Source: an uncultured Candidatus Saccharibacteria bacterium
Lineage (GTDB): Bacteria; Patescibacteriota; Minisyncoccia; Phycocordibacterales; UBA1006
Length of the DNA: 64,000 nucleotides
Direction of reading: 5' to 3'
Assembly: GCA_964350165.1 (NCBI GenBank)
Contig: CAYGJA010000003.1
Location: 4,233-68,232 of the forward strand
The notes beneath the pieces were generated by a model. That model saw only the letters and a program-made list of their open reading frames with translations. It was not told where the DNA came from and did not search any database. This document shows, piece by piece, positions 22,188 to 23,637 of the stretch; within the stretch, counting starts at the first letter, position 1, and each line of letters begins with the position of its first letter. The position numbers and the translations under genes were made by a program.

Positions 22188-23637
22188 TTTGAGTTGTTCT
22201 ACGACCAGCTTCCGCTAGCCGTGCCTTGTTACGACTTAGTCCCTGTTACCAAATTTACCTTCGGCCACGATAAACGCAGACTTCGGGTACCCCCGGCTCC
22301 CTTGACTTGACGGGCGGTGAGTACAAGACTCGAGAACGTATTCACCGCAACGTAGCTGATTTGCGATTACTAGCGATTCCAACTTCATGTGGTCGAGTTG
22401 CAGACCACAATCCGAACTGAGGATGGTTTTAGAGGATTAGCTCAGGGTTACCCCGTCGCGACCTGTTGTACCATCCATTGTAACACGTGTGCAGCCCAAG
22501 ACATCAAGGAACATGCTGACCTGGCGTCATCCTCACCTTCCTCCTCTACAAGAGGCAGTCTCGCGTGACATATATAACACACGACGAGGGTTGCGTTCGT
22601 TACCCCACTTAAGGGAACAGCTCAAGCCACGAACTGACGACGGCCATGCATCACCTGCTCAACAGCCCGAAGGCGAATTCTCTTTCGAGAAAACTTCTGC
22701 TGAGTGTCTAGTCTTGGTAAGGTTCTTCGCGGATCATCGAATTAAGCCACATGTTCCACCGCTTGTGCGAGTCCCCGTCTATTCCTTTGAGTTTTAACCT
22801 TGCGGTCGTACTTCCCAGGCGGCAGATTTAACGCGTTAGCTACGCCTCAGAAAGGGTCGATTCTCCCTAAAGCTAATCTGCATCATTTAGGCCCTGGACT
22901 ACTGGGGTATCTAATCCCATTCGCTACCCAGGGTTTCGTGCCTCAGCGTCAGTGATGGGCCAGTATACTGCCTTCGCATTTGGTGTTCCCCTCGATATCA
23001 ACGGATTTCACCCCTACACCGAGAGTTCCGTATACCTCTCCCACACTCTAGTTATACCGTTTCAAAAGCAATCCTGATGTTGAGCATCAGTCTTTAACCT
23101 CTGACTAATATAACCGCCTACGCACCCTTTACGCCCAGTAATTCCGGATAACGCTTGGGGCTCTGGTATTACCGCTCCTGCTGGCACCAGATTAGGAGCC
23201 CCTTATTCATGGAGTAACGTCAATAAACTTCCTCCTCCATAAAAGATGTTTACACACCTAGATGCTTCATCCATCACGCGGCGTCGCTCCGTCACACTTT
23301 CGTGCATTGCGGAAGATTCTCGACTGCAGCCACCCGTAGGTGTTTGGACCGTGTCGCAGTTCCAATGGTGGGGGTCAGGCTCTCACCTCCCCTACGCGTC
23401 ATAGCCTTGGTAGTCCATTACACTACCAACTAGCTGATACGAAGCAGGCCATTCCTCGAGCGATAAATCTTTACCCCGTAGGGACTATCAAGTATTGTTC
23501 CGGATTTCTCCGGATTATTCCTGACTCGAGGGTATGTTCCTACCTGTTACTACCCCGTTTGCCATGGGTCTAAACCCATTCGACTTGCATGCCTTATCCA
23601 CGCCGCCAGCGTTCATCCTGAGCTAGGATCAAACTCT
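22188..23637 (-). rRNA. rrs: 16S ribosomal RNA (~1450 nt), stand-alone (no 23S downstream), with a non-canonical 3' tail
   Basis: Plus strand carries reverse complements of 27F (CTGAGCTAGGATCAAACTCT at ~23619-23638), the 1392 region (GACGGGCGGTGAGTACAAG) and 1492R (CCTTGTTACGACTT at ~22230). Helix 45 ACGGCUAGC-GGAA-GCUGGUCGU is intact. The 3' end coordinate is approximate. Confidence 0.9.

Follow-up and report, generated by a model that had tools for sequence, protein, structure and literature searches.

A Parcubacterial 16S Ribosomal RNA Gene in Which a Conserved A/U-Rich Tail Stands in Place of an Anti-Shine–Dalgarno Motif

Pairing between the Shine–Dalgarno (SD) sequence of an mRNA and the anti-SD sequence at the 3' end of 16S rRNA is the textbook route by which bacterial ribosomes locate start codons. 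The subject of this report is a 16S rRNA gene on the minus strand (23644..22187) of a 64,000-nucleotide stretch of contig CAYGJA010000003.1 (assembly GCA_964350165.1), called the window below, which offers a clean example of a lineage in which the rRNA half of this pairing is gone. The gene is a genuine, complete and functional single-unit gene of a Paceibacteria/Parcubacteria bacterium from the Candidate Phyla Radiation (CPR), and it has no anti-SD. The explanation favoured here, and held with good confidence, is that in this functional CPR 16S rRNA the anti-SD has been replaced by a conserved A/U-rich tail, that translation starts independently of SD sequences, and that leaderless mRNAs are a major route of initiation. 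It builds on four things that are directly observed: the sequence of the tail, the degree to which the clade conserves it, the lack of SD motifs at gene starts and the positions of -10 promoter boxes.

The gene was recognised as a full-length bacterial 16S rRNA gene of 1458 nt by the Rfam model SSU_rRNA_bacteria (RF00177), with a score of 1375.4 bits against a gathering score of 50 and with model positions 1-1533 covered. A cmscan restricted to 22000..22500 gave a gap-free alignment of the final 65 positions of the model. At the 3' end, the model's GGAUcACCUCCUUu stands column by column opposite AGAACAACUCAAAC at 22200..22187, where E. coli carries GGAUCACCUCCUUA (E. coli 1529-1542). The CCUCC core of the 13-14 nt tail that follows helix 45 is absent, and ACUCA (22194..22190) is found in its place. 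An earlier note on this DNA, made from the letters of the sequence, had described exactly this replacement, as well as a position-by-position match to the canonical tail; both descriptions, with their coordinates, hold in the Rfam alignment that it had suggested as a check, which is gap-free and contains no CCUCC.

Moreover, the surroundings of the tail are those of an ordinary 16S rRNA. The 3' order in the window is the universal AAGUCGUAACAAGG, then helix 45, then the tail AGAACAACUCAAAC. The GGAA tetraloop helix stands directly after the 1492 region and has 9 bp at -14.2 kcal/mol, while at the tenth pair that the Rfam model gives to helix 45 the window has a C/A mismatch. The earlier note had called the helix a perfect 9-bp stem; the nine pairs and the GGAA loop are there, but two of the pairs are G·U wobbles, so that the word "perfect" has to be dropped. 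It had also placed the helix immediately after the 1492R site, and here the order is right, with a single C lying between the two (22237..22224 being the 1492R site). The pairing of helix 44 and helix 45 is intact.

A canonical 3' end could still exist in a displaced position, if helix 45 had been parted from its GGAUCACCUCCUU exon by a mis-assembly, or by an intron or intervening sequence at about position 1506. Insertions are known in CPR rRNA genes (Tsurumaki et al. 2022, RNA 28:1041, PMC9297842), and the 16S trailer of the window is unusually long, with 163 nt from the modelled end to the processing stem. However, the tail directly abuts helix 45 in the gap-free alignment, and an exact search of the minus strand downstream of the gene found no canonical tail (GATCACCTCC). 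When three or fewer mismatches to GGATCACCTCCTT are allowed, 18 matches are found window-wide against 16.4 +/- 3.8 by chance, and the minus strand has none of them from 14340 to 22186; no exact or three-mismatch form is thus met before 14339 on this strand. What comes after the trailer is instead the terminator of the unit (21967..21898), followed by pth with its own promoter.

The two flanks of the gene are also joined to each other by a predicted 28-bp leader/trailer stem, of the kind used in RNase III-type processing. Such complementarity between the two flanks makes it very unlikely that the gene was joined chimerically at its 3' end. A separate assembly gave an identical contig (Logan, run ERR3535002), with 100% identity over 2310 nt that span the 3' part of the 16S gene, the trailer and pth. 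In addition, the same type of tail is found in at least 120 related species. A displaced 3' end is accordingly considered extremely improbable. The argument of the earlier note, that native spacing and structure speak against an intron or a mis-join, is borne out: it had pointed to a canonical GGAUCACCUCCUU-like exon downstream and to a chimeric contig as the findings that could overturn it, and the first was sought in exact and three-mismatch form with no result, while the 28-bp stem, the unit's own promoter and terminator and the identical Logan contig give no sign of the second.

It might also be supposed that the window holds a decaying or secondary copy, and that the working ribosomes use another 16S rRNA with a normal anti-SD. 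The window covers only 64 kb of the genome, and its 16S gene is unlinked, since neither a 23S nor a 5S gene was found within these 64 kb by Rfam or by blastn with the E. coli 23S. Yet the full-length Rfam score is very high, the pairing of helices 44 and 45 is preserved, the promoter, processing stem and terminator are intact, and the genes of the window lack SD motifs, as fits an anti-SD-less ribosome. Unlinked rRNA genes are the norm in the clade, with 90 of 92 related loci having no 23S (loci with a downstream 23S or with at least 3 kb beyond the 16S were counted), and an unlinked 16S without CCUCC is the rule among the at least 120 related species. CPR genomes usually carry a single rRNA gene set. 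A second, canonical copy as the working one is very unlikely, and the intron, mis-join and pseudogene readings are wrong for this gene.

The altered tail is not peculiar to the window. One genome per GTDB species was scanned with the helix 45 pattern of the window (GTCGTAACAAGGNACGGCTAGCGGAAGCTGGTNGT), the tail being left free, which returned at least 120 contigs; the labels and tail counts given here refer to the matches listed. At least 120 species genomes carry exactly this helix 45, and nearly all are titled as members of the Patescibacteria group. Most are labelled Parcubacteria, Paceibacteria or Minisyncoccia, the named groups among them being Nomura-, Kaiser-, Zambryski-, Yonath-, Giovannoni-, Niyogi- and Staskawicz-bacteria, and two are titled Bacillota or Flavobacteriaceae. 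CCUCC occurs in 0 of 120 tails and CUCC in one of them. In effect, the loss of the anti-SD is clade-wide and is fixed across at least 120 species-level genomes. The earlier note had called an anti-SD-less ribosome rare, which is true across bacteria overall, whereas in its own clade it is the rule.

The tails of these relatives follow a consensus, GGA[U/A][U/C]A[A/U]UUC[A/C]A (GGAWYAWUUCMA), with near-invariant positions G1529, G1530, A1531, A1534, U1537, C1538 and A1540. The window tail agrees with all of the near-invariant positions except for G1529A, and it has three private substitutions relative to the consensus of its sub-lineage, GGAUCAAUUC. As several positions are conserved across the clade, the tail appears not to be free to drift and to be under selection for something. 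The 16S rRNA of the window is only ~85% identical to that of the best listed genome (Parcubacteria metagenome-assembled genomes) and to the 24 metagenome contigs of its own sub-lineage, which marks it as a deep branch. Its CPR/Parcubacteria affiliation is indicated by the shared helix 45, by this ~85% 16S identity to Parcubacteria genomes and by CPR-typical T4SS-pilin-like genes.

In most relatives, the former anti-SD forms part of a small structure. Positions 1536-1539 are complemented 3-5 nt downstream, giving a mini-hairpin (for example L059:1051-1107, L002:150-206 and L007:466-522 among loci L002-L121), which takes forms such as UUCA-AUU-UGAA, UUCC-AAUU-GGAA, AUCC-AAUC-GGAA, CUCA-AAU-UGAG and CUCC-UUUUA-AGGAG. 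Among unique sequences, the innermost pair is A:U in 49, C:G in 28 and U:A in 6. A covariance-model alignment of 100 loci shows the 4-bp mini-hairpin 90% paired, with two-sided changes at all four pairs; the double-change cells number 31, against 5.7 +/- 2.1 after shuffling and at most 12 in slid controls, and these counts lean towards the hairpin because the alignment was fitted to the structure. For most of the clade, the former anti-SD is thus predicted to be paired inside the rRNA transcript, either in mature 16S rRNA or in its precursor. Two simpler procedures were set aside. A crude best-hairpin scan of tails against shuffles did not discriminate, because A/U-rich sequence makes 4-5 bp stems by chance, and was replaced by class-wise covariation and the covariance model; a MAFFT alignment of the tails was dropped for pair counting, as it is ungapped and leaves hairpins with loops of three and four nucleotides out of register.

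The mini-hairpin is absent from the window itself, where CUCA is followed by AACGAUAUAA with no complement to it. The sub-lineage of the window is likewise without it and carries an insertion of 40-60 nt in its stead. Next to the tail in this sub-lineage come, in order, AAA(C)GAUAUAA, a variable hairpin (22178..22153 in the window) and the conserved element GAAUYGGUYGRU, whose pairing partner is the 16S leader. In the 24 related metagenome contigs, the trailer has a hairpin at the same position, with a sequence that varies. The pairing of the element amounts to a second leader/trailer helix, formed in the window by 23834..23826 with 22151..22140, and in relatives by leader segments at about -177 to -207 (few elsewhere), each with its own trailer element. 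A different pairing, of the tail's CAAUUC with the GAAUUG of the trailer element in this sub-lineage, was rejected, since the three tail substitutions of the window are uncompensated and the element pairs with the leader ~200 nt upstream. As a separate observation, the trailer element and the processing stem are set apart by ~115 nt of structured trailer RNA that contains several hairpins (22025-22139, minus strand). No tRNA was detected in it, and a match to Yfr8 in the trailer was dismissed as chance (15.5 bits against a gathering score of 40, E = 0.44 in Rfam).

The mRNA side of the pairing was examined at the gene starts. Non-overlapping open reading frames (ORFs) were used, with the longest-ORF start or the first ATG taken as the start, and the region -20..-3 was scanned for the SD-like 4-mers GGAG, GAGG and AGGA. 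Such 4-mers precede 2% of the 56 window starts, against 11% of random positions and 15% of internal ATGs. The pipeline can detect SD sequences where they are present, because 50 kb of E. coli treated in the same manner gives 40% of starts versus 6% of controls. Inspection by hand found no SD at infB, rbfA, gyrA, groES, groEL, pth, rnj and mscL, nor at the genes for an RNA pseudouridine synthase (43592-44311) and a Na+/H+ exchanger (42109-43281); the starts of rpsA, secG and an aminotransferase gene could not be fixed by hand and stand outside this inspection. The statement of the earlier note that no GGAGG-like motif precedes the well-supported starts is therefore confirmed by count and by eye, with rpsA and secG left aside in the latter. 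In the clade as well, SD-like 4-mers are not enriched (12.6% vs 13.2%, ORFs of 120 listed related loci), and no G enrichment is seen upstream of 437 non-leaderless clade starts, where the sequence is A/U-rich.

A more subtle possibility is that SD docking has been re-tuned rather than lost, the altered tail (…CAACUCAAAC) pairing with a co-evolved mRNA motif such as UGAGUUG. The conservation of U1537, C1538, A1540 and A1534 across the clade would suit such a role. However, the 5-mers complementary to the real tail (TGAGT, GAGTT, TTGAG, AGTTG) occur at 0 of the 56 starts versus 3% of controls, so that the search for tail complements proposed by the earlier note, applied to the window, reveals none that is enriched. 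The mean duplex energy with the real tail is -1.9 kcal/mol at starts, weaker than at random (-2.6) and internal (-2.8) sites, and with either tail, real or canonical, the predicted duplexes are weaker at window starts than at controls. Across the clade, the only enriched upstream 5-mers are A/U-rich or -10-like, and the nucleotides in question are predicted to be paired inside the rRNA transcript in most relatives. In Amin et al. 2018 (PMC6107228), no variant SD matching a variant anti-SD was found. Re-tuned pairing thus has very little probability left. With no displaced tail, no chimerism and no SD motif, the anti-SD-less ribosome that the earlier note had proposed gains support.

What a part of the gene starts does carry is a promoter element. 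A strict -10 box was defined as TAnnnT having at least 5/6 matches to TATAAT. Of the 56 window genes, 11 have one 5-9 nt before their first ATG; for internal ATGs, the count is 14 out of 772 (odds ratio 13, p = 1e-7). The modal gap is 6 nt. When alternative in-frame starts are admitted, the number is 16 of 56 against 1.8 +/- 1.3 by chance. In the clade (~490-540 ORFs, 120 listed loci), the boxes are most frequent at gap 6 (39-42 genes), followed by gap 7 (23-24 genes), against ~0.4% per position in the background; the distribution falls at gap 5 and at gap 8, and some gaps of 8-9 nt are seen. With a gap of 6 nt, transcription would normally begin on the A of AUG, and this arrangement in the DNA is the classic mark of leaderless mRNA. 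In the pth ORF, whose start is of this type (Table 1), the Pfam Pept_tRNA_hydro match begins at residue 16.

An artefact of ORF definition was suspected, because TATAAT-like boxes contain stop codons and could cluster upstream of first ATGs. It was excluded: the peak stays when boxes overlapping in-frame stops are removed, and it is absent in 2812 spurious ORFs (81 of 537 real ORFs with a box versus 25 of 2812 spurious ones; odds ratio 20, p = 6e-45). Moreover, the start-proximal boxes show two further promoter features that were not used in selecting them. An extended -10 TG accompanies 42 of 101 such boxes, against 79 of 1372 internal ones (p = 2e-22), and TTG at -35 spacing accompanies 31% against 16%.

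Taken together, the following course of initiation is proposed. The anti-SD core has been swapped in the clade for a partly conserved A/U-rich tail (GGAWYAWUUCMA; AGAACAACUCAA in the window), and with this core replaced, ribosomes cannot dock on mRNA by SD:anti-SD pairing. Many first genes of transcription units would be read from leaderless mRNAs, the -10 box lying 6-7 nt before the start codon and transcription beginning at or next to the AUG. Others, such as groES and gyrA, would have A/U-rich leaders without an SD and may be served with the aid of ribosomal protein S1, and inside operons, the close coupling of neighbouring genes may suffice. The rpsA product, with its four S1 domains, is a candidate helper for SD-independent initiation on leadered mRNAs, and rbfA, groEL and infB abut the preceding gene by a few nucleotides.

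Several points weigh against this proposal. The leaderless signature is present in only ~20-30% of genes, and leaders of ~25-60 nt without an SD are predicted for groES, gyrA and mscL. The gene starts were set by a crude ORF rule and not by curated annotation. As the window covers only 64 kb, a second 16S gene with a canonical tail is formally possible. The transcript start at the AUG, the leaderless translation and the 3' end of mature 16S rRNA are features that we infer from sequence. Finally, the loss of the anti-SD and the leaderless starts co-occur within the clade, which is not a demonstrated correlation.

Some of the same facts could be read in favour of SD-independent initiation mainly on leadered mRNAs, by means of S1 and unstructured A/U-rich leaders as proposed for Bacteroidetes, in which case the start-proximal -10 boxes would yield very short leaders. 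The ~70-80% of genes that show no -10 signature and are A/U-rich upstream, the presence of rpsA, the SD-less leaders of groES, gyrA and mscL and the gaps of 8-9 nt all agree with it. The sharp peak at gaps 6-7, on the other hand, puts +1 on the A of AUG, and it falls away at 5 and 8. As a replacement for the explanation by SD-independent starts with leaderless mRNAs as a major route, it is improbable; it complements that explanation more than it excludes it. The groES gene is worth describing in its own right (36691-36790, minus strand). Its promoter matches the consensus (TTGACA, 17 nt, TAAAAT), and its leader of ~60 nt is without an SD and contains the inverted repeat TTACT-TATC-AGTAA, which could be an operator. 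Its true start is the ATG at codon 8, 21 nt (seven codons) past the GTG of the longest ORF.

The loss of the motif has precedents. Tsurumaki et al. 2022 (PMC9297842) detected CCTCCT in only 48% of Parcubacteria, found that the motif-lacking lineages largely coincide with the uL1-lacking group, and inferred that SD helices do not form in them. The window, like that subgroup, has a CPR/Parcubacteria 16S rRNA without CCUCCU at its 3' end, and since anti-SD loss is published for the subgroup, it is a further case of a known phenomenon. That article reports the presence or absence of the motif and the overlap with the uL1-lacking group only, while the replacement tail, the mini-hairpin and the leaderless signature come from the present analysis. 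The rplK-rplA region, which would hold the uL1 gene, lies outside the 64-kb window. A topic search for anti-SD and Patescibacteria returned nothing relevant, and nothing was found in the searchable literature on leaderless mRNAs or start-site signals in Parcubacteria/CPR or on a tail hairpin. What may therefore be new is the leaderless signature, together with the replacement tail in its conserved or hairpinned form, whereas the loss of the motif itself is published.

In other phyla, 15 (Lim et al. 2012) and 128 (Amin et al. 2018, PMC6107228) anti-SD-less organisms were described, among them Chryseobacterium, Elizabethkingia, Riemerella, Blattabacterium, some Mycoplasma, Ca. Carsonella and Ca. 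Hodgkinia. According to the second study, they are generally without SD motifs and have no compensating variant SD. The window resembles them in its intact helix 45, its 13-14 nt tail without CCUCC, and the lack of both upstream SD and variant SD. Those organisms, however, belong to unrelated phyla and are mostly scattered genera or reduced endosymbionts, whereas the present case concerns a whole species-rich environmental class with a conserved non-SD tail. The broadest form of the claim, judged to have about an even chance of being right, is that this whole class dropped SD docking, that a large share of its transcription units are leaderless, and that the former anti-SD was kept as a conserved tail, mostly as a covarying hairpin of 3-4 bp.

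Two further kinds of systems invite comparison. Work attributed to Nakagawa and colleagues in 2010 and to Jha and colleagues in 2021, the latter on the ribosome structure of Flavobacterium johnsoniae, reportedly found that Flavobacteriia/Bacteroidetes keep CCUCC without using it, the sequence being sequestered by ribosomal proteins. The window would share with these bacteria SD-independent initiation and A-rich upstream regions, but here CCUCC is gone from the rRNA. Deinococcus, many archaea and mammalian mitochondria are rich in leaderless mRNAs, and the mitochondrial 12S rRNA has no anti-SD, while in Actinobacteria and Deinococcus the anti-SD is still canonical and SD sequences serve the leadered genes. 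As in leaderless-rich systems, a promoter element adjoins the start codon in the window; unlike in Actinobacteria and Deinococcus, no SD system is left, and the leaderless state is deduced from DNA signals only. Mycobacterium tuberculosis is also reported to be rich in leaderless mRNAs (Cortes et al. 2013).

These findings have practical consequences. In this clade, the loss of the anti-SD coincides with a promoter-at-start-codon architecture typical of leaderless mRNAs. Gene callers that score ribosome binding sites will misplace starts in anti-SD-less genomes, and heterologous expression of such genes needs SD sequences to be added. Anti-SD-less Parcubacteria would also be good material for studying 70S/leaderless initiation in bacteria and the role that is left to the 3' tail of 16S rRNA. 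The coordinates of the features are collected in Table 1.

Table 1. Coordinates of the 16S rRNA gene, its transcription and processing signals, and selected gene starts in the window.
Feature	Coordinates	Strand	Basis or detail
16S rRNA gene	22187..23644	-	RF00177, 1375 bits
Universal 1492R site AAGTCGTAACAAGG	22224..22237	-	Read in sequence
Helix 45, 9 bp including 2 G·U	22201..22222	-	cmscan structure line; fold -14.2 kcal/mol
Helix 45 parts: ACGGCUAGC; GGAA loop; GCUGGUCGU	22222..22214; 22213..22210; 22209..22201	-	
3' tail AGAACAACUCAAAC	22187..22200	-	Aligned to E. coli 1529-1542; former anti-SD ACUCA 22194..22190
16S promoter: -35 TTGACA 23869..23864, 16-nt spacer, -10 TATACT 23847..23842	23842..23869	-	Consensus match only, predicted
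Terminator of upstream gene, just before 16S promoter	23910..23871	-	Sequence
5' leader segment CGACUGAUU, partner of conserved trailer element	23826..23834	-	Duplex -12.6 kcal/mol
Conserved trailer element GAAUCGGUCGAU (sub-lineage GAAUYGGUYGRU)	22140..22151	-	3' strand of long-range leader/trailer helix
Trailer hairpin GCCCAGA-UGAG-CUUG-CUCA-CUGAGGC	22153..22178	-	Fold -10.9 kcal/mol
Leader strand of 28-bp pre-16S processing stem	23667..23694	-	Pairs with 22024..21997, 28/28 positions, -38.6 kcal/mol
Trailer strand of 28-bp processing stem	21997..22024	-	163-190 nt past 16S 3' end
Intrinsic terminator of 16S unit: 22-bp stem and U-run	21898..21967	-	Fold -36 kcal/mol
pth start: extended -10 TGgTATAGT 21898..21890, 6-nt gap, ATG 21883 (MLIIICLGNPG...)	21883..21898	-	Leaderless-type
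450-aa ORF start: TATACT 8506..8501, 6-nt gap, ATG 8494	8494..8506	-	Leaderless-type start
MFS transporter gene start: TATACT 40897..40902, 6-nt gap, ATG 40909	40897..40911	+	Leaderless-type start
Start of ORF at 47016: TGaTAGAAT, hexamer 47028..47023, 6-nt gap, ATG 47016	47016..47028	-	Leaderless-type
Pseudouridine synthase gene start: TAGAAT 43580..43585, 6-nt gap, GTG 43592	43580..43594	+	Leaderless-type
rpsA, ribosomal protein S1, four S1 domains	20189..21307	+	Pfam S1, 5.7e-41, 4 matched stretches

Other genes of the window deserve a brief description. The infB gene (2856-4349, plus strand) has GTP_EFTU, EF-G_D2 and IF-2 domains and is followed 5 nt later by rbfA; at only 497 aa, its product is without the long N-terminal region of E. 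coli IF2. A 530-aa ORF (5053-6645, plus strand) has a longest-ORF TTG start that overlaps a tRNA-Leu(UAA) gene (5065-5150, minus strand), so its real start lies further downstream. At 10333-14574 (minus strand), there are five genes with T4SS_pilin-like C-termini, one of them of 706 aa with InlB B-repeat-like (Flg_new_2) domains, a cluster typical of CPR surface or conjugation-like systems.

Two minus-strand ORFs of 520 aa (25231-26793) and 636 aa (29951-31861) have no Pfam match and are probably paralogous. Near-identical sequence (…aaccccatcggaagggtaaaattccgatat…) stands upstream of both, at 26794-26833 and 31862-31901 (minus strand), and represents a duplicated promoter/leader. Finally, a run of polysaccharide genes at 48518-56697 (minus strand) comprises a GH6 protein of 638 aa, a nucleotidyl transferase, a PMT_2-GH8 fusion of 904 aa and GT2 cellulose-synthase-like proteins of 732 aa and 111 aa, which is notable for a small-genome CPR bacterium.

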